DNA of 64,000 nucleotides, from the NCBI GenBank assembly GCA_049968235.1, contig JBMFRC010000003.1, forward strand, positions 203,463 to 267,462, written 5' to 3'. This document shows positions 5,405-64,000 of the stretch, piece after piece. Under the pieces are notes generated by a model. The model did not search any database. It was not told the DNA's origin and saw nothing but the letters and a program-made list of their open reading frames with translations. Within the stretch, counting starts at the first letter, position 1. Every line of letters starts with the position of its first letter. This stretch comes from Candidatus Hydrogenedens sp. Lineage in GTDB: Bacteria > Hydrogenedentota > Hydrogenedentia > Hydrogenedentales > Hydrogenedentaceae. The translations under genes and the position numbers were made by a program.

Positions 5405-5628
5405 CCTCCTTTCAATATAAATTTATGAGTTGAAAAGGATTTTTATTATATAACAAATAGGGGTAATATTTCAATAGATAATCTATTTTTATTTTTACTT
5501 CTATTTATGCTAAAATAATAAATCAATGTAGTGGAGATGGGGTTCTCCTAAATCGCCGATGTGGCTGATGACTCCTACCTGAAATATCCTCAATGTAACT
5601 CTCTTTATTTTTATGAAAGGAATATGAC

Positions 5629-6822
5629 ATGGAACATCTATATCTATCTGCATCAATCTGGTTATTTCTCGCCCTAACCTCCGCTATCATTGCATATTAC
5701 TTGAAGGTTTCTATTGCTTTGATAGAGATTTGTGTAGGTATTATCGCAGGATATATAGCGACCCATTTTCTACAGACCGATTTGCTTAATAATAATGAAG
5801 AATGGTTAAAATTTCTTGCAGGTAGTGGAGCCATTTTTCTTACTTTCCTTGCAGGTGCTGAATTAGAGCCTACTGTGATTAAAAATAAATGGAAGGAGGT
5901 TCTTCTTATCGGCTTGATTGGATTTTTTTCTCCATTTGTCGGTTGTTCATTGATTGCTCATTTTTTGTTAGGGTGGGACCCGAGAGCCAGTTTGCTATGT
6001 GGTGTAGCCCTATCAACTACTTCAATGGCTGTGGTTTATGCGGTGATGATTGACACAGGATTAAATGTTACAGAATTTGGGAAGGGCATATTAGGTTCTT
6101 GTTTTATCAATGATATCGGGACCGTTCTCGCTTTAGGAATCATCTTTGCACCGTTTACCTACAAGACCTTTATCTTTATTACTATAACAATTATTTATCT
6201 TGTTCTTTTCCCGTTTTTTACCAACCATCTGACGAAGGTATATGGGAATCGAACTGCTGCAATTCGAACCAAATGGATTTCATTCACACTGTTCGGATTA
6301 GGTGCATTAGCACTATGGTCGGGCAATGAAGCAGTCTTGCCTGCCTATATAGCGGGTATGGTCCTTGCAGAATTCAGTCAAAGAAATCCTATATGGTTAC
6401 GAAGATTACGAACTTTGACCATCGGATTTCTTACCCCATTTTATTTTTTAAGGGCAGGCACACTTGTATCCGTTCCTGCATTAATTTCTGCACCATTTCT
6501 TATCGTTGCCCTATTAGGGGCAAAAGTAGTTTCCAAGATATTTGGACTATACCCTTTTATCATACAATTTCGGAAAGAAAAAAATGAACGATGGTATTAC
6601 ACCTTGATGATGTCCACAGGACTCACCTTCGGAACTATCTCTGCTCTATTTGGATATTCTCATAATATTATCAATACAGAACAATATTCCTATATAGTAA
6701 TTGCTGTTATTGCAAGTGCTGTAATTCCAACTATGTTTGCATCCTACCTCTTCACACCGAGACATCTTTTATCTCAGAAAATTCATGTCTCAAAATCTAT
6801 ACATGAATTATCTGAGGAATAG
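5629..6822 (+). CDS. cation:proton antiporter (Na+/H+ exchanger family)
   Basis: 397 aa polytopic membrane protein with CPA-type N-terminal helices ('ICVGIIAGYI') and 10-12 TM segments. Confidence 0.6.
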   Translation: MEHLYLSASIWLFLALTSAIIAYYLKVSIALIEICVGIIAGYIATHFLQTDLLNNNEEWLKFLAGSGAIFLTFLAGAELEPTVIKNKWKEVLLIGLIGFFSPFVGCSLIAHFLLGWDPRASLLCGVALSTTSMAVVYAVMIDTGLNVTEFGKGILGSCFINDIGTVLALGIIFAPFTYKTFIFITITIIYLVLFPFFTNHLTKVYGNRTAAIRTKWISFTLFGLGALALWSGNEAVLPAYIAGMVLAEFSQRNPIWLRRLRTLTIGFLTPFYFLRAGTLVSVPALISAPFLIVALLGAKVVSKIFGLYPFIIQFRKEKNERWYYTLMMSTGLTFGTISALFGYSHNIINTEQYSYIVIAVIASAVIPTMFASYLFTPRHLLSQKIHVSKSIHELSEE

Positions 6823-14300: not shown

Positions 14301-16601
14301 ATGACCATGCGAGGATATTTTATCCCTTTAATTTTTCTCTTATCCTTTACAGCAATTCTTCCTTCTTTTGCAGGCGAGAAAATTAAATATCAATTAACAA
14401 TTAAGAGAGTTGGTGATGAAGGGATTGTAAATCCTGGAATTGGGACTTTCTACTATGATGCAGGGACCACTGTTTTTCTCAACGCTATTCCGACTGCAGA
14501 CTGGGCATTTGACCACTGGGAAGGTGCTGTTTCAGGGACAGACTTATTTACTCAAGTGCTGATGGACAAACCAAGGACAGTTACCGCTGTTTTTGTACCA
14601 GCACAATGGAGGCTGACCATTGAGCATAGTGGGAATGCTACCGGTACAACTTTCCCTGCTCCCGGGGTCTATGGATTTTTAGATGGTAGAACGGTAGGAG
14701 TTAGCTCTGGCACTTCGCCGGGTGTATATTTTGGAGGCTGGAGGGGTGATGTGATAAGTAATGAAGAATTTGTACAGGTGGTTATGAATTCTGACAAATA
14801 TATAAATGCACGATTCACGGATACAGGGTATACCCTTAGTATAAGTGTAATTGGTCCGGGAGGAACAACCCCCTGGCAAGGGACAGTGCATCGGTATTCA
14901 GAAGGATTATCTATATCTGTTGTATCTTATTCAACAAATCCTTTATGGCGGTTTGACCATTGGGAAGGTGATATAGGCGATAACGAATCACGATATTATA
15001 TCCTGTTGCAACTAACTATGGACCAGGACCGAAATATCACCGCGGTATTCATTGAGAAGCCATATTATAACCTTACATTGGAAATCGTTGGCGAAGGAGG
15101 TGTTTCTTTTCAACAGGGCTTTGATGACCCCGTAACTCTATCCACAGGTATCCATGAATTTAGCATTATTGAGTGGACCTATATTCGATGTGAAAAAATA
15201 ATCACTTCACCCACATGGAAATTTCTCCACTGGGAAGGAGATTTTGGTGATACATTGCCTACCTATTATCGATGTGCTTTCTCTATGGACAAAAACCGTT
15301 ATGTCCGTTGCATTTTTACCAATTTGACACAGGTCCCTGATGTTATAGGAACACCTCAAAATATCGCAGAAACGACCATTATAAATGGAGATTTGATAGT
15401 CGGTAACATTACAGAAATATGTAATGATAATTATGTATCAGGATATGTAATAGACCAATATCCACCTGCAGGGACTACTGTAGAAATAGGAAATTCTGTA
15501 TCACTCTGGGTTTCCACAGGACCTTGTCCTGTATCAGTGCCAAATCTTATCGGATTAACCATAGAAGAGGCAGAGAATGCAATAAATAGTGCCGGCTTAA
15601 CGCTGGGTAATGTGATGAACTCGTGTAATGATGAAATTGGGATGGGAATAGTATTTGGTCAAAATCCATTAGCGGGAGAGCAATTATTCCCCGGTAGTTC
15701 TGTAAATATTGAGGTATCTTCAGGACCCTGCCCGGCGGAAGGGATTATAGAAGGTGAAGGGATGGAGGAAGGTATGCCCGAAGGAGAAGGGACACCCGAA
15801 GGAGAGGTATGCGTCTGGATGGGAGCTTGTCCTAACTTTAGTTATGAAGGAATAAAAATGGGATATTTTGTCGGACAATTATGGAATAACTGCGATATTA
15901 ATCAATCCGAAATCCCCGATGCATGGGAGATAGAAATTGTTAAGTATTTGCTGTGCAATCCTCAGGGAATATGGGAGGATAAATTTATTTGTAAATTTAT
16001 TGAAAATTATAATATTCTGGCAACGGAGTCTTTATTCCATACAACTTATTATTCCTTCCGGCATATTTTAACAGGACTTCTTACTATAGGAACCAATATG
16101 GATATTTTAAGAAACACTTTCTTTCTAACCAAAAACTATTATCCATTTGAATATCCATCGGATAATTTCCCGTTATTGCCGGATGCGGATATTGATAATG
16201 ATGAATTAACTAATTATGAGGAATACCTCAGGGTAGTCGAACTTAACGGAAGTAACAATGCATTTATTCGGAACATTTTCAATCCTTCGCCTGTTCCTCC
16301 CATTCACTCCGCAGATATAAATCAGAACCATAGAATAGAGTTGACAGAACTACTTCGCATTATTCAATTCTTTAATTCTTCAGGATTCCACTGTGAAAAT
16401 GGGACAGAAGATGGTTATGCGCCGGGTTATGACGAGAGTTTCGATTTTTCATGTGAACAACACACGGCGGATTATTTGCCCCACGATTGGCATATTAGCC
16501 TTGAAGAAATTCTAAGGATGGTTCAGTTTTTCAACGCAGATGGCTATCAGATGTGTCCCTTTATTTCTGAAGATAGTTACTGTCCTATTTTCTCTGAGTA
16601 A
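14301..16601 (+). CDS. large secreted multi-domain surface protein: InlB-B-repeat-like modules, two PASTA domains, E/G-rich acidic linker, C-terminal dockerin/EF-hand-like module
   Basis: Signal peptide. About four repeats of the '(F/W)DHWEGD...TAVF' type (Listeria-Bacteroides repeat-like). PASTA-like 'VPNLIGLTIEEAENAINSAGLTLGNV...' appears twice. 'EGEGMEEGMPEGEGTPEGE' linker. C-terminus has 'DADIDNDELTNYEEY', 'DINQNHRIELTELLRIIQFFN' and 'ISLEEILRMVQFFN'. Confidence 0.6.
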   Translation: MTMRGYFIPLIFLLSFTAILPSFAGEKIKYQLTIKRVGDEGIVNPGIGTFYYDAGTTVFLNAIPTADWAFDHWEGAVSGTDLFTQVLMDKPRTVTAVFVPAQWRLTIEHSGNATGTTFPAPGVYGFLDGRTVGVSSGTSPGVYFGGWRGDVISNEEFVQVVMNSDKYINARFTDTGYTLSISVIGPGGTTPWQGTVHRYSEGLSISVVSYSTNPLWRFDHWEGDIGDNESRYYILLQLTMDQDRNITAVFIEKPYYNLTLEIVGEGGVSFQQGFDDPVTLSTGIHEFSIIEWTYIRCEKIITSPTWKFLHWEGDFGDTLPTYYRCAFSMDKNRYVRCIFTNLTQVPDVIGTPQNIAETTIINGDLIVGNITEICNDNYVSGYVIDQYPPAGTTVEIGNSVSLWVSTGPCPVSVPNLIGLTIEEAENAINSAGLTLGNVMNSCNDEIGMGIVFGQNPLAGEQLFPGSSVNIEVSSGPCPAEGIIEGEGMEEGMPEGEGTPEGEVCVWMGACPNFSYEGIKMGYFVGQLWNNCDINQSEIPDAWEIEIVKYLLCNPQGIWEDKFICKFIENYNILATESLFHTTYYSFRHILTGLLTIGTNMDILRNTFFLTKNYYPFEYPSDNFPLLPDADIDNDELTNYEEYLRVVELNGSNNAFIRNIFNPSPVPPIHSADINQNHRIELTELLRIIQFFNSSGFHCENGTEDGYAPGYDESFDFSCEQHTADYLPHDWHISLEEILRMVQFFNADGYQMCPFISEDSYCPIFSE

Positions 16602-16697: not shown

Positions 16698-17858
16698 ATG
16701 AAGAATAAACTGCTTTTTTTATGCTTATTTATTTCCCTGATAAATATGCAGTCCGCTATTCACGCGGAAGTGATTTTTGAAAAAGATTTCAAAACAAGTA
16801 GTATTCCTGAAACAAAAATTATCCGTTACAGAGTACTAAGTCATAATGACGAAAAAAAGGGCTATACTTTTTCATTTCTGGGGAAAGTTCTGAAAGGACA
16901 GGTTACTATTCAGATTGAAGATACTGAGAAAAACATTATTGAAAAAAGGGAAATTCCCGCTTTTTCTTTACTACACTGGCATTTTACATTGTCCGAAGAA
17001 AAAGGACTGGATAATATTTATATATCCTTACACCTAAAGGATATGGTTGGAAATATTTACTCCGTAGTTGTTCCCACTATACAAAGCCAGCAGGTTTACA
17101 TTGTTCAGGGGATAGTCGTATCTATGAACCTCCTTTTATTTTTCGCATGTATATATATCATCAGAAGAAAATCCCTTTATCTCTCATGGTGGGGTTGGGG
17201 AATACTGCTTGGGATTTCTGCAAAGGTTCTCTTTTATATTGTTGATTATATTGACTTTTTACCCACCACACTATTAATCAATTCTACAACCCTTGAAGAT
17301 GACCTTTCGGATTATCTTTTCTCTATCTATATCTCTTTACGGGAAACGGCTATCCTTTTCTTGATATTAGGCTTCTTCTCAAGCAGGTTATTATCGTTAG
17401 AACATAAAAAACAAATGGCTATAAGCATTTCTCTGGGTATTGCTCTTATATTCTTAACTTTCACCATTTTTGAGGGAGTATTACGAACATTTCAAATTAT
17501 GCCATCATTAAATATATCTCCCTATTCCCTGGCTCTCTTTTCTGTGCAGATAGCACGAACACCCTTTTATTACTTCCTCATTCCATTAAAAAATATAATT
17601 CTATTGATATTATGGTTTAGTGCTTTTTATCTAGCACTATCCGGTGCAATACAGGCAGAAAGAAGAACGGTAATTCGCGGAATATTAATATTTATCTTCA
17701 CAGAAGCAGTGCTCGTCTATTTTGAAAATTCCTATTTCATCTATCATAACTCCAGTTGGTGGGTTGTAGTTTCGGTATTAGTAATTAGTTTTTTCCCTGT
17801 GTTCATTTACAAATTCAAAACGTTTATATACGCCGAACCATCTCCCATCAAAAAATAA
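16698..17858 (+). CDS. membrane protein with N-terminal extracytoplasmic domain plus 7-8 TM helices (7TMR-DISM-like, no cytoplasmic output domain)
   Basis: Signal peptide, ~120-aa periplasmic domain, then seven to eight hydrophobic helices. The protein ends shortly after the last TM. Confidence 0.45.
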   Translation: MKNKLLFLCLFISLINMQSAIHAEVIFEKDFKTSSIPETKIIRYRVLSHNDEKKGYTFSFLGKVLKGQVTIQIEDTEKNIIEKREIPAFSLLHWHFTLSEEKGLDNIYISLHLKDMVGNIYSVVVPTIQSQQVYIVQGIVVSMNLLLFFACIYIIRRKSLYLSWWGWGILLGISAKVLFYIVDYIDFLPTTLLINSTTLEDDLSDYLFSIYISLRETAILFLILGFFSSRLLSLEHKKQMAISISLGIALIFLTFTIFEGVLRTFQIMPSLNISPYSLALFSVQIARTPFYYFLIPLKNIILLILWFSAFYLALSGAIQAERRTVIRGILIFIFTEAVLVYFENSYFIYHNSSWWVVVSVLVISFFPVFIYKFKTFIYAEPSPIKK

Positions 17859-17892
17859 ATCATCTTATACCCGACAAATTTCATATGAGACC

Positions 17893-18582
17893 TCTGAATA
17901 AGTCATCCGAGTTAGGTAGTATATAAGAAGGGGATGAGAGGAAAGATGAAACGAGAAGAGAAACTATTGAGGGTTGAATAACAAAGGAAGGAAAAACTAA
18001 AAATGAAGAAAGGTCTACACAGTATGGTAAAAAAGATAGAGCAAACAAGTTTTATAGATTACAAGATATCCCATCAAAGACAGCCCCGTCGTAGATGCTT
18101 TTTGAAACAGATGCAAGAGGTGATACGATGGATGGAATTTGAGCAGAGCTGCATAGAGAAAGGAGTATATAAATCGAATGGGCTAGAGCGAAGGCTTCCG
18201 TCTTTACTATTTTGTGCATTGTTGAGCAGTGAGTGATGATTTCTCTGTATTCTCTGTGGTTGATTATGTTTTTTTCCCACCACGGAGGACACGGAGGGTA
18301 CGGAGAGGCACAGAGAGGCACAGAAAGGCACAGAGAGAGGAACCTATCATTTCTTGTTAATGACTGCATATAATTTGAAGTGGATGTATGGGGAATTAAG
18401 GTTAAAAAGGATCAATATGCATGGATAACCAAAAGATAGAAAAATTGACATAAAACAGCACATAAAATAGTAAAAGTAGATTTATAGACTTTTGTATTTT
18501 AATTTCTTATCAGGATTTTATCTCATAAAAACATATATAAGTTATACCCTAACCTCTTACACTAATTGTTAAGAGGTCTCAT
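17893..18582 (+). mobile_element. degenerate IS5-family-derived element with 17-bp terminal inverted repeats, a transposase N-terminal remnant and a CACAGAGA-unit hairpin array
   Basis: Left end 'CATATGAGACCTCTGAA' (17895..), right end 'TTAAGAGGTCTCATATG' (..18582). The element contains a DUF772 fragment at 18003..18236. About 330 bp of it is repeated in inverted orientation at 49012..49340. Confidence 0.45.
18003..18236 (+). pseudogene. IS5/InsH-family transposase N-terminal (DUF772) fragment
   Basis: 77 aa 'QTSFIDYKISHQRQPRRRCFLKQMQEVIRWMEFEQ' resembles the InsH N-terminal domain (xxSFADxE...R..FLxxMxxVxPW). No DDE domain follows. Confidence 0.5.
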
Positions 18583-18890
18583 ATGTATTTTATTTCTTCA
18601 CTCTGCCCTATTATTCAGTACATTGCATATATTGTATCTGGCTCATTTTTATTCCCTGTTAGTGAGACACTACCAATACTTTTCCATTACAAGCAGAATA
18701 CCTCTTCGGTACTCCATTTTTCTTGTATGATTGTGGCAAAGAAGTTCTCTTTTTTGCCTGTGCTGATTGTTAGTTGGCGGTAATAGGGTGGCTATTTTTA
18801 CTTTTCTTTATTAACTGTAATAAACTATCTTATTATCTGTGCTTCAATAGAGTAAACAATAACAATAACTTACAAGAAGGAAAGATAACA

Positions 18891-20306
18891 ATGAAAAAGA
18901 ATGAATGGTCAAAAATGACACGAAGGGCATTTTTAGCCACATCCACAACAGTAGTAACAGCGGGTGCTTTTGCACAGACCCCGTCCACCCAGAATACGGC
19001 ACAGGTTGTTCCCCGTAAGATTTCTCCGAACGAGAAATTGAATGTAGCTGCGATTGGTGCTGGTGGGAAAGGACTTTCTGATATTATGAGTTGCTTTAAG
19101 TTGGGACACAATGTTGTTGCTCTTTGCGATGTAGATTGGAAACGGGCTGAAGAGGCATTTTATCGTTTGCCGAAAGCGAAAAAGTATAAAGATTATCGTA
19201 ATATGTTAGAAGAGATGAAGGAAATTGATGCGGTTACGATTTCTACTCCCGACCATTCTCATGCCCCTGCTGCATATATGGCAATGAAGATGGGGAAACA
19301 TGTATATGTTCAGAAGCCGTTAACGCATACGATTGCAGAGGCGAGATTGCTTACCCTCACGGCACGCGAGACAGGTGTCGCAACACAAATGGGGAATCAG
19401 GGGCATTGTGGTAATGGAGTGCGTCAATTGTGCGAAATGATTTGGAGTGGTGCTATCGGTAATGTGAAAGAAGTTCATATATGGACACATCGTCCGGTAT
19501 GGGATAATCAGGGAATGACAGAGCCATTACCGCCGGAAGTAACACCCGAAGATATGGACTGGGACCGCTGGATTAACTGTGCACCATGGCGTCCCTATAA
19601 CCATAAATTGGCTCCGCATGATTGGCGAGCCTGGCAGGATTTCGGTTCCGGTTCTCTGGGCGATATGGCTTGCCATATTATGGACCCGGCATACTGGGCG
19701 TTGAAATTGTATGAGGCACCGGAATTTTCTGTTGAAGTGGTCTTTCAGAAGGGACAAAATAGACAAACATTTCCGATTGCAACCACAGTAAAGTATTCCT
19801 TTGTGGCACGTGGCGATATGGGACCTGTTGATGTTTATTGGTATGATGGACACTGGAAGGATGAAGCCACCGGTCAGGAAATCTATAATCGTCCCAAACG
19901 ACCCGAAGGAGTGCCGGAGGATGAAGTATTGGGCGATGATAATATGAATGGTTCCATGTTTATTGGTGATAAAGGCATTCTTACAGCAGGGGAATATGGT
20001 GGAGAACCGCGATTGGTTCCTTCTTCTTTGATGAAGGATTATACCCTACCACCGCAAACGATTGAGCGTATCCCGATGGAAAGTCCATATTTTGACTGGC
20101 TTCGTGCTTGCAAGGAAGATAAGCCCGCCTGTTCGAATTTTAATTACTCCGGTCCCTTCACAGAAATGGTGCAGTTTGGCAATGTCGTCGTCAAATCAGG
20201 TCAAAAGTTAATCTGGGACAATATTAACGGTGTTGTTAAAAATGTATCCGACCCGAAATCAATTATAAGTAAAGAATATCGTAAAGGCTGGGAACTTCCC
20301 TGCTAA
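18891..20306 (+). CDS. Gfo/Idh/MocA family oxidoreductase with twin-arginine (TAT) signal
   Basis: 'MTRRAFLATSTTVVTAGAFA' TAT motif and Rossmann 'LNVAAIGAGGKG'. Start moved to the ATG at 18891, which has an SD 'aaggaaag'; the ORF-track start at 18774 lacks an RBS. Confidence 0.85.
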   Translation: MKKNEWSKMTRRAFLATSTTVVTAGAFAQTPSTQNTAQVVPRKISPNEKLNVAAIGAGGKGLSDIMSCFKLGHNVVALCDVDWKRAEEAFYRLPKAKKYKDYRNMLEEMKEIDAVTISTPDHSHAPAAYMAMKMGKHVYVQKPLTHTIAEARLLTLTARETGVATQMGNQGHCGNGVRQLCEMIWSGAIGNVKEVHIWTHRPVWDNQGMTEPLPPEVTPEDMDWDRWINCAPWRPYNHKLAPHDWRAWQDFGSGSLGDMACHIMDPAYWALKLYEAPEFSVEVVFQKGQNRQTFPIATTVKYSFVARGDMGPVDVYWYDGHWKDEATGQEIYNRPKRPEGVPEDEVLGDDNMNGSMFIGDKGILTAGEYGGEPRLVPSSLMKDYTLPPQTIERIPMESPYFDWLRACKEDKPACSNFNYSGPFTEMVQFGNVVVKSGQKLIWDNINGVVKNVSDPKSIISKEYRKGWELPC

Positions 20307-49011: not shown

Positions 49012-49340
49012 ATACAGGAGACCTCTGAACAATTCATGTAAGAAATTATGGTATAAACTACATATGTTTTTATGAGATAAAATCCCGATGAGAAATTAAA
49101 ATACAAGAGCCTATATCTCTACATTTACCTATTTTATTTGTTATTTTCTGTCAGTTCTTCTATTTTCTTATTACCTATGCATACCTCCCCCCTTACTTCC
49201 TTAATTCCCATACATCCGATTCAAATTATATGCTGTTATTAACAAGAAATGATAGGCTCCTCTCTCTGTGTCTGTCCGTGTCCTCCGTGGTGGGAAAAAT
49301 GTATTTCGCCACAGAGAACACAGAGACACACGGAGAAAAG
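49012..49340 (-). repeat. second, shorter copy of the CACAGAGA-unit/IS-derived repeat, in inverted orientation relative to the 18.2-18.6 kb copy
   Basis: The reverse complement aligns to 18243..18582. Examples: 'cctatcatttcttgttaa', 'catataatttgaa', 'ggatgtatggg(g)aattaagg', 'ttgtattttaatttct', 'gattttatctcataaaaacatat', 'gttcagaggtctc'. The transposase-fragment segment is absent. Confidence 0.45.
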
Positions 49341-49443
49341 GGAGAAGAAATCGTTCTACCGCTACCATTCAAATTACATGCGAAGGGAACACAAAGGTTT
49401 TTGAAAGAAAGATATAAGTGGAAAATTTAGGTATTGTTATGTT

Positions 49444-61955: not shown

Positions 61956-64000
61956 CATGTGGGGGAAAAACTATACGGAATGGCTGGTCATACTCTTACC
62001 GGCTCTTTTTATAACATCAACATTATTGGCACAGGAAAAAATCCTTTCAGGAACAAGCCTGTATGCACAGGTTGATAGAAATAAAATAAAAGCAGTCATT
62101 GATGATTTACCTAAAACAACATTCCGATTAACAATAACTCATAGTGGGGATGCTACAGGGACTACTTTCCCGGGTCCGGGTGTTTATGAATATTCCTCTG
62201 GACAAACAGTAGGGATTAGCGTTGCAACCTCCGATGGCGTTTATTTCGGCGGTTGGTCCGGTGACTCAGCAGGTTCCAGTGAGTTTATACAGGTGGTAAT
62301 GGACCGTGATAAAACGGTGGATGCCCGATTTACCAGTACGGGACACATACTAAATATTTATATTGAAGGGGAAGGAGGAACAACTCCGGGTCCCTTCGGA
62401 AATCCACATCGGTACTCAAGCGGTTTATATATCGATATAACAACTTACCAAACAAACCCATTGTGGCGATTTGAACACTGGGAAGGTGACATTGGTGAAA
62501 ATGACCCCAGAAGTTATGTTATCTATAACCTGCTAATGGACCAGGACCGTAATATAGCCGCAGTGTTCATCGAAAAACCATATTACGACTTAACAGTAGA
62601 AATCATAGGAGAAGGAAATGTCTCTCTACAGGAAGGTTATGAAACCCCCATCATTCTAACCCCAGGTGTGCATACATACTCCTACCTCGAATGGACATAT
62701 ATCCGCTGTGAAAGAATAGAAACAAACGAAGATTGGAAATTTCTTCGATGGGAAGGGGACTTTGGGGATACCTTGCCAACATATTTCAGATGCAGTTTCT
62801 CAATGGACAAAAACAGATACATCCGCTGTATATTTACCAATAATACTCAGGTCCCTAATGTGGTCGGTATCACTCAATCTAGTGCAACTACTGCTATTAC
62901 CAAAGCATGGTTAACTGTCGGGGAAATTACCGAGATTTGCAATGATGAATATCCTTCCGGGTATGTTGTCGACCAGGACCCGCCCGCAGGTACAACAGTA
63001 GAAATTAATACTCCCGCAGCACTCTGGGTATCCTCCGGTCCCTGTCCAGTACCCGTCCCAAATGTAATGGGGAAAACTCAAACAGAAGCGGAAGACGACA
63101 TCACCTTAGCAGGATTAATTTTAGGAAATGTATCCGAGCAATGTAATGACGAAGTGGAACAAGGTAAAGTAATTAACCAAAACCCTCAACCCGAAGAATT
63201 AGTGCCACCCGGTAGTCGCGTAGATATTGTGCTTTCCTCCGGTCCCTGTCCTATCACCGTGCCAAATATTGTCTGGCAATTTCAACAGGATGCAGAAACG
63301 ATAATAGCCAATGCGGGATTAGCCGTAGGGATAGTAACCGAGCAGTGTGATGACACCATACCAGATGGCAGAGTAATAAGCCAGAATCCATACGCCGGAA
63401 CACAGGTTCCACCTGGCACAGCAATCAACTTTACCGTTTCCACCGGTCCGTGTCTGGTAACTGTCCCCAATGTGGTGCAATATTCACAAACAATAGCAGG
63501 ACAAATACTTACATCCGCAGGACTAACCGTTGGCAATATTAGCCTGCAATGCCATAATAGTATTCGGACTGGACTCGTAATAAGCCAATCCCCATCAGCA
63601 GGCGAAAAAGTGCTACCAAACAGTGCTGTAGACCTTATCATTTCCTCCGGACCATGCATAGAAGGCTCACCCGAAGGAACCACAGAGGGCGAAGGTTTTG
63701 TTGAAGGGACTCCCGAAGGAACACCTGATGGTGAAGGGACAGTTGAAGGAACAACAGAAGGTAATGCCGAAGGTGAAGGCACCGTCGAAGGTACAACGGA
63801 AGGTATATCCGAAGGTAGTGCTGATGGCGAAGGTACCGTGGAAGGAGCAGTAGAAGGCGAAGGGACTAACGAAGGAGCCACTGAAGGTGAAGGTATGGCA
63901 GAAGGTGAAGGAGAAACACCATCACATAGTGCAGACCAAAATGGAGATTGGCAGATAAATCTACCCGAGTTATTACGCGTGATACAATTTTTCAATATAC
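61956..64000 (+). CDS. paralog of the 14301..16601 surface protein, 3' partial: InlB-B-repeat-like modules, four PASTA domains, E/G acidic repeat, start of dockerin-like module
   Basis: 'MWGKNYTEWLVILLPALF' signal. 'FEHWEGDIGENDP...AAVF' and 'FLRWEGDFGDTLPTYFRCSFSMDKNRY' repeats. Four PASTA-like 'VPN(V/I).G...A...(L/I)...GL..G......C.D' units. '(T/A)EGEG' repeats. 'DQNGDWQINLPELLRVIQFFN' at the window end. Absent from the ORF track because it has no stop within the window. Confidence 0.6.

Follow-up and report, generated by a model that had tools for sequence, protein, structure and literature searches.

An intergenic segment of a Candidatus Hydrogenedens genome has inverted repeats at its ends, a fragment of a transposase reading frame within it and, directly after that fragment, an array of short repeats that folds back on itself. 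The question raised by this locus is what kind of element these parts make up, and whether a known insertion sequence (IS) accounts for all of them. We refer throughout to the window, which is the whole stretch of DNA that was analysed (64 kb). Our conclusion, to which we assign a probability of about 0.9, is that window positions 17887–18580 are a non-autonomous, internally deleted IS5-family derivative, a long MITE-like element inserted at ATAT between two genes. A sequence-only reading had also described a MITE-like, non-autonomous IS5-family derivative, and this description is borne out by the inverted repeats, the 4-bp target duplication, the transposase remnant, the multiple copies and a full-length parent-type IS; the span of ~690 bp that it had bracketed contains a real element, but the extent is 694 bp at 17887–18580. 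The kind of element is already known, and what is new is the individual case, an ordinary jumping-gene fossil. Its parts are listed below.

17883..17886, unstranded: left target-site duplication ATAT; an identical 4-mer follows the right end
17887..17906, plus strand: left terminal inverted repeat and subterminal sequence GAGACCTCTGAATAAGTCAT; 11/12 complementary to 18569–18580
17907..18002, plus strand: transposase 5' UTR remnant, purine-rich, with the conserved ATGAAACGAGA motif; collinear with the 5' UTRs of L016, L010 and L009
18003..18236, plus strand: 77-aa ORF, an IS5-family transposase N-terminal remnant and pseudogene fragment (tblastn, profile search)
18237..18341, unstranded: fold-back array CACAGAGA at the deletion junction (TRF, repeat families, copy alignment)
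18240–18259: left arm of the array, two TTCTCTGTR units
18260–18279: loop of the array, T-rich
18280–18341: right arm of the array, about six CACGGAGG / GGCACAGAGA-type units
18342..18428, plus strand: C-terminal transposase remnant TYHFLLMTAYNLKWMYGELRLKRINMHG ending in a stop, ~28 codons (tblastn, blastn; frame and stop read from the sequence)
18429..18568, plus strand: 3' UTR remnant of the parent, including the copy-conserved block TTGTATTTTAATTTCTYATCRGGATTTTATCTC (blastn, 18489–18584 versus parent 1275–1369, 71%)
18569..18580, minus strand: right terminal inverted repeat TTAAGAGGTCTC; matches the parent right end TTCAGAGGTCTC
18581..18584, unstranded: right target-site duplication ATAT (read from the sequence and from relatives)

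Ends of the element and target-site duplication

The element is bounded by the inverted repeats GAGACCTCTGAA and TTAAGAGGTCTC, which are complementary at 11 of 12 positions. When the CATAT/ATATG flanks are included, CATATGAGACCTCTGAA at 17882–17898 and TTAAGAGGTCTCATATG at 18569–18585 are complementary at 16 of 17 positions, and the extended terminal arms match at 22 of 26. Inverted repeats of 17 bp had been reported from the sequence alone, and they do exist, but the left one starts at 17882 and not at 17895 (13 nt off) and the right one ends at 18585 and not at 18582 (3 nt off). With up to three mismatches allowed, the 64-kb window contains three matches to the 17-mer versus 0.19 expected, a count reached in none of 100 shuffles; the third match, at 49013, marks a second, partial copy of the element. 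The left end GAGACCTCTGAATAAGTCAT has 95% identity over 21 nt to the left end of the parent IS and is identical in the sister copies L002 and L040, and the right end is 91% identical over 23 nt to that of the parent L016.

In L016 and L002, as in the window copy, ATAT stands on both sides of the GAGAYC...GRTCTC core. As this 4-mer is a palindrome, a duplication in the window copy alone is indistinguishable from a 4-nt extension of the inverted repeats, and the boundary is set by three relatives. The full-length, frameshifted L042 (74% identical to L016) reads AACT|GAGATCTC...GAGGTCTC|AACT, a clean 4-bp duplication, and L007 is flanked on both sides by ATTT, so that the duplication is unambiguous in both. 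In L026 (2036–2503), an older copy of a related IS (76% identical) hosts a parent-type IS in its 5' leader, and the ATAT preceding the insertion can be aligned with sequence that belongs to the host element. Taken together, L042, L007 and L026 indicate that the lineage begins at GAGAYC and duplicates 4 bp of an AT-rich target, the length expected for IS5-type elements. Two other models of the ends, a 2-bp (AT) duplication and ATAT as part of the inverted repeat, were rejected on the same three elements. Decayed copies have imperfect duplications, ATAT/ATTT in L040 and ACAT/ATAC in L032, and the flanks of L009 (AAAT/ATTT) are likewise an imperfect duplication. The ends also contain NdeI (CATATG) and BsaI (GAGACC) sites; an origin as a cloning artefact was rejected on the presence of diverged copies at seven loci in independent assemblies.

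The parent-type IS

Transposases of the IS5-type group combine DUF772 and DDE_Tnp_1 domains in about 326–345 aa, and their elements make a 4-bp target duplication. The parent-type transposase P0004 (343 aa) has DUF772 at residues 65–138 and DDE_Tnp_1 at 150–328 (Pfam) and scores 252 bits against the NCBIfam model NF033581, ‘IS5 family transposase’ (cut-off 140). The parent is placed in the IS5 family by these domains, by the match to a curated family model and by the 4-bp duplication of its relatives. Through the contigs of P0004 and its relatives, and a metagenome scan with the left-end 19-mer, we recovered the metagenome contig L016, which carries a complete IS of ~1.37 kb with an intact 343-codon transposase. 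Its layout is ATAT|GAGATCTCTGAATAAGT, a 155-nt leader, the transposase, a 3' UTR of ~170 nt and TTGTTCAGAGGTCTC|ATAT, and its ends (GAGATCTCTGAATAAGT / TTCAGAGGTCTC) are near-identical to those of the window element. L016 thus provides an autonomous, cognate IS whose ends match those of the element; the examined contigs of the window genome showed no such partner. The closest full-length ISs come from metagenomes or from another Hydrogenedens MAG, and the transposase remnant is only 59% identical at the protein level. Against the IS5-family transposases that are annotated on sequenced plasmids, the parent transposase reaches no more than 37% identity, and the parent-type 3' UTR is unusually long (about 170–190 bp).

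In another Candidatus Hydrogenedens MAG, a related intact IS5-family element with a 336-aa transposase (P0021) lies in a chemotaxis operon, with cheX on one side and cheW on the other (L006/L007/L008:2330–3700). The site is shared by three samples.

What the deletion removed and what it left

The window element is collinear with the L016 IS at both ends and over IS positions 156–383, 1107–1207 and 1275–1369. Window positions 18003–18230 correspond to IS positions 156–383, and 18345–18444 match 1107–1207 at 76% (blastn). At the protein level, P0004 residues 1–76 align with 18003–18230 at 59% identity (tblastn, E 1.9e-22), and residues 316–336 with 18339–18401 at 81% (E 5.9e-6). A profile built from the ORF and its short homologues retrieves the same N-terminal residues 1–76 of P0004 (HMMER, 1.84 billion representatives, E 5.7e-29). 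The 77-aa ORF itself has no Pfam or NCBIfam match, so its homology is shown through the profile search and tblastn. The suspected IS similarity of the 77-aa fragment is thereby confirmed. It had been assigned to the N-terminal DUF772 domain of an InsH/IS5 transposase lacking DDE; the IS5 transposase N-terminus and the missing DDE domain hold up, but the domain name is imprecise, since the remnant overlaps only ~12 residues of DUF772 (parent 65–138) and lies mostly upstream of it.

Residues 1–76 and 316–343 of the 343-aa transposase are thus represented in the element, the C-terminal remnant being in frame with the N-terminal ORF and separated from it by the stop codons of the array. The sequence-only reading had overlooked this second remnant and the homology in the 3' UTR. 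About 723 bp (parent IS 384–1106) have been lost, comprising the remainder of DUF772 and the entire DDE catalytic domain. DDE_Tnp_1 is absent from the element (Pfam, tblastn), and so is a DUF772 match in the 77-aa ORF. We therefore regard the element as IS5-derived and not itself an IS5-family IS; lacking the catalytic domain, it cannot be autonomous. At 694 bp (below ~1 kb), without a functional transposase gene and with coding remnants, it falls at the long end of the MITE size range.

The noncoding segments are retained as well. The 5' UTRs of L016, L010 and L009 have GTGAAACGAAACGAGAGGG / ATGAAACGAAAGAGAG in common, and the 5' UTR remnant is conserved in the sister copies. We note that a conserved (A/G)TGAAACGA(A/G)A motif lies in the purine-rich 5' leader at window 17934–17975 and in the leaders of L016, L009 and L007, where it starts a small upstream ORF in every case (MKREEKLLRVE and a stop in the window). 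Conservation of the 3' UTR was found in c2, L002, L032, L033 and L040. One ~33-nt block of it (GAGATAAAATCCYGATRAGAAATTAAAATACAA, minus strand; window 18448–18540 and 49075–49110) is conserved far above the rest of the element in c1, c2 and L002, differs at just a few positions in L032, L033 and L040, and may be a candidate subterminal transposase-binding site.

Two minus-strand ORFs, 18052..18369 and 18074..18331, run antisense to the transposase remnant and the array and have no Pfam match above the cut-off. This is consistent with their earlier dismissal as spurious, and they are best treated as annotation artefacts. A promoter and terminator scan found no terminator, and fewer promoter-like sites than in shuffled sequences.

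Copies in the population genome

The neighbouring 386-aa protein is identical in assemblies GCA_049971155.1 and GCA_049969095.1, contigs of which match the window at 99.9% identity over 7.1 kb and 4.3 kb, respectively; at this identity the two assemblies and the window represent one population genome. Across the three we found the element at at least seven distinct loci with unrelated neighbours, including a partial copy in the window itself at 49018–49397; the refutation that a lack of further genomic copies would have brought therefore fails. The copies are as follows.

c1, window 17887–18580: the element under study; ORF intact
c2, window 49018–49397, minus strand: right inverted repeat, 3' UTR, C-terminal remnant, strong fold-back and a ~60-nt insert
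L001, at a contig end: 77-aa ORF intact
L002: both ends present; stops in the ORF
L032: both ends present; ORF frameshifted
L033 (the same as L034): left end lost; ORF truncated
L040 (the same as L041): both ends present; ORF frameshifted

Pairwise identity among copies is 71–84%. The partial copy c2, which the sequence-only reading had not connected with c1, has neither the ORF nor the left end; it is 81% identical to c1 over 18315–18593 (blastn), and P0004 residues 316–334 match it at 49260–49204 with 79% identity (tblastn). Only c1 and L001 retain an unbroken ORF, and stops, frameshifts or truncation are found in the other four of the six copies that have the region (L002, L032, L033 and L040). 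With the missing DDE domain, this supports the decayed state proposed from the sequence alone. Since the copies diverge by 16–29% and the ends are degenerate in some, we infer that the family is largely fossil today. The only orthologous loci retrieved were L035 and L036, where the element is present or the contig ends inside it; no empty site or presence/absence polymorphism was found among them, so mobility is deduced rather than directly observed.

Both terminal inverted repeats and the subterminal sequences, which are what a transposase supplied in trans needs, are in place, and a cognate IS5-family transposase acting in trans probably spread the copies. Alongside these, the element retains dead remnants of the transposase gene, namely the 5' UTR with the first 76 codons and the last ~28 codons with the 3' UTR. 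The fold-back was presumably born at the deletion event or shortly after it, and its units would then have expanded and contracted through slippage, copy by copy.

The assignment has some value for annotation. The 77-aa ‘hypothetical protein’ of Hydrogenedens MAGs (P0001–P0003 and related fragments) is a transposase pseudogene fragment, and the repeat family explains contig breaks in these MAGs, with L036 and L001 terminating within copies. It also documents, for a candidate phylum that has received little study, an IS/MITE pair of the IS5 lineage whose ends are defined and whose target is 4 bp long and AT-rich.

The fold-back array at the deletion junction

A fold-back of ~105 bp occupies the place of the ~723-bp internal deletion and, as homology to the C-terminal remnant and the 3' UTR is retained beyond it, the array lies exactly at the deletion junction. 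TRF resolves it into 2.8 copies of a 9-mer and 3.5 copies of a 10-mer. In an alignment of the central region, no part of the element varies more than the array: the right arm of c1 has six units and its arms are unequal, L032 has a compact hairpin with two units per arm, the left arm of L040 is down to one unit and L002 has a diverged version. The left arms of c2, L001 and L033 contain an extra ~60 nt bracketed by TTCTCTGTGTTCTC-like repeats. The predicted stability of the hairpin relative to shuffled sequences varies correspondingly among copies.

c1: DNA z −1.1, RNA z (sense) −1.5; not significantly above shuffled
c2: DNA z −4.05, RNA z (sense) −7.7
L032: DNA z −6.3, RNA z (sense) −6.6
L033: DNA z −3.2, RNA z (sense) −5.0
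L002: DNA z +0.6, RNA z (sense) +0.8; hairpin lost

The imperfect, hairpin-forming palindrome previously noticed after the ORF is present at 18240–18341, with a weak hairpin in c1. Neither the array nor the ~60-nt insert has detectable similarity to four parent-type ISs and, with no source for the fold-back detected in the parent, an account by simple internal deletion is incomplete. A suggestion from visual inspection, that LEKNG codons gave rise to the last array unit, found no support; the comparison with the parent IS gave only noise. Rfam covariance models run over 17000–19500 gave nothing at the gathering score and only sub-threshold chance matches (E 3–10), and there is no terminator-like tail at the fold-back. 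A protein search with the spurious ORF over the c2 array found nothing, so arrays of exactly this type are not widely called as proteins. The simplest reading is that the array is junction DNA, palindromic when the deleted element was founded, that has since drifted by slippage and point mutation. A variable fold-back at a deletion junction is a small curiosity on how such derivatives form and does not amount to a new type of system.

One match outside the population genome bears on this part of the element. Three GTDB species genomes other than that of the Candidatus Hydrogenedens organism contain the left-end 20-mer. In one of these, an unrelated MAG of 50% GC (L005:3817–4000), an identical 22-nt left end ATGAGACCTCTGAATAAGTCAT is followed after 6 nt by a CACAAAG/CTTTGTG fold-back and then by the right-end-like CAGAGCTCTC. 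The L005 site is possibly a mini-element of ~145 bp, and it probably represents a far smaller derivative of this kind carried by a different bacterium. In the 257 kb scanned, clusters of the CACRRAG/CTYYGTG type were found only at copies of the element and at the L005 site. We also observe that an outer arm upstream of the 22-mer in L005 pairs with the far arm, a feature that the simple model leaves unexplained.

Alternative explanations

Two important questions for our model are (i) whether the fold-back is more than junction DNA and (ii) whether the 77-aa ORF is still in use. For the first, the fold-back might be a functional or mobile payload, either a hairpin in the sense-strand RNA or an independent small palindromic repeat joined to ends of this IS lineage across bacteria. 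Three copies form a very stable hairpin (RNA z −7.7, −6.6 and −5.0), and in all four hairpin-bearing copies the transposase-sense RNA, with its G.U pairs, folds better than the antisense, although the strand difference in z-score is small. One inner-stem change in L002 is two-sided (CTGTGG/CCACAG to CTTTGG/CCAAAG). Against a payload, the hairpin is lost in L002 (z +0.6 to +0.8), c1 folds weakly (z −1.1 to −1.5), and the left arm of L040 retains one unit. The pairing of an identical left end with a fold-back and CAGAGCTCTC in L005, and the confinement of the motif clusters to these elements, would fit a payload. Within the window, however, the arrays are found only inside copies of the element, the unit number varies freely, as neutral slippage predicts, and Rfam matches and a terminator-like tail are lacking. 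We consider a payload distinctly unlikely. A broader version, in which the CACRRAG/CTYYGTG fold-back is a recurrent companion of these IS-lineage ends across unrelated bacteria, whether as a hairpin selected at the RNA or DNA level or as a product of deletion and repair (snap-back synthesis at a break), also seems improbable to us.

For the second question, truncated transposases that act as inhibitors are known from other transposons, and the 77-aa ORF could by analogy be a working gene whose product, a truncated transposase N-terminus, binds the inverted repeats and represses or titrates transposition. In both c1 and L001 the 77-codon frame is unbroken and stops at the same position, and dN/dS between them is below 1 (0.52). 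That value rests on 12 synonymous and 29 non-synonymous differences, however, and is far more relaxed than the 0.16–0.18 obtained against the parent, a pattern that fits relaxed constraint on a dead fragment. The frame is broken in four of six copies, there is no promoter-like site upstream of it, and its homologues among 5.8 billion proteins are other copies of the element: a word-indexed search returned only three short ‘hypothetical proteins’ of Candidatus Hydrogenedens MAGs, all from further copies. A working gene is thus highly unlikely, and we retain the view that the ORF is a pseudogene fragment within a deleted IS5-family derivative.

Comparison with known elements

The Correia elements of Neisseria and RUP of Streptococcus pneumoniae are noncoding, dispersed intergenic repeats with the potential to fold, the inverted-repeat ends of which are recognised in trans. 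The window element follows the same logic of ends recognised by a transposase supplied in trans. Correia elements and RUP, however, are 100–160 bp long, lack coding remnants and belong to other IS lineages, whereas the 694-bp window element is still recognisable as a deleted IS.

The nearest published analogue is the BrickBuilt MITE of Porphyromonas gingivalis (Klein et al. 2015), the ends of which (GAGACCTTTGCA) were set beside those of ISPg1/ISPg9 and ISNme1 (PMC4596501). The terminal inverted repeats of these IS5-family elements (ISNme1 and ISPg1/ISPg9) start with GAGACC, as in the window element (PMC4596501). Both derivatives are non-autonomous, intergenic and multi-copy, with ends of the IS5-family type (GAGACCTTTGCA in BrickBuilt and GAGACCTCTGAA in the window), and both contain an internal tandem repeat that varies in number between copies. 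BrickBuilt has a variable 23-nt minisatellite of direct repeats and no transposase remnant (PMC4596501), whereas the window element has 8–10-nt units in two complementary arms together with N- and C-terminal transposase remnants. Compared by the table of that paper, the likeness in sequence is limited to the first nucleotides of the ends (PMC4596501).

Matches elsewhere

The two other occurrences of the left-end 20-mer are of a different character from L005. In another uncultured bacterium (L003:3913–4341, minus strand), GAGACCTCTGAATAAGTCAT and an inverted, imperfect copy of it, ACTTATTCAAGGTCTTC, lie ~410 nt apart, and both terminal-repeat copies are flanked by AAAA; this may be a MITE made of two left-type ends. 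In a Pseudomonadales MAG (L004; sites 5459–5503 and 5754–5773) the 20-mer is intergenic, and a 45-bp palindrome, GGGGACCTCTGATCAAG...CTTGATCAGAGGTTACC, with arms that resemble the terminal repeat, lies ~260 nt upstream of it. The palindrome directly follows a citrate-synthase-like gene and could be a chance occurrence or a terminator.

The metagenome scan with the right-end pattern found nothing, and a scan of viral contigs gave only chance matches in coding sequence. The left-end 19-mer was found at 20 metagenome loci, six of which are the parent IS. Another seven (L013, L018, L020, L022, L028, L029 and L031) were discarded as chance matches to the ..NDLFRDLI.. codons of a eukaryotic gypsy-type reverse transcriptase; the retrotransposon with this match occurs in several JGI metagenomes. 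The other loci are singletons, at about the level expected by chance.

Two further repeats in the window are coding and unrelated to the element. Tandem repeats of 42/54-nt units at 63700–63915 encode GEGT/EGT-rich segments, and 18-nt units at 15768–15812 encode EGMPEG repeats in a 766-aa PASTA-domain protein.
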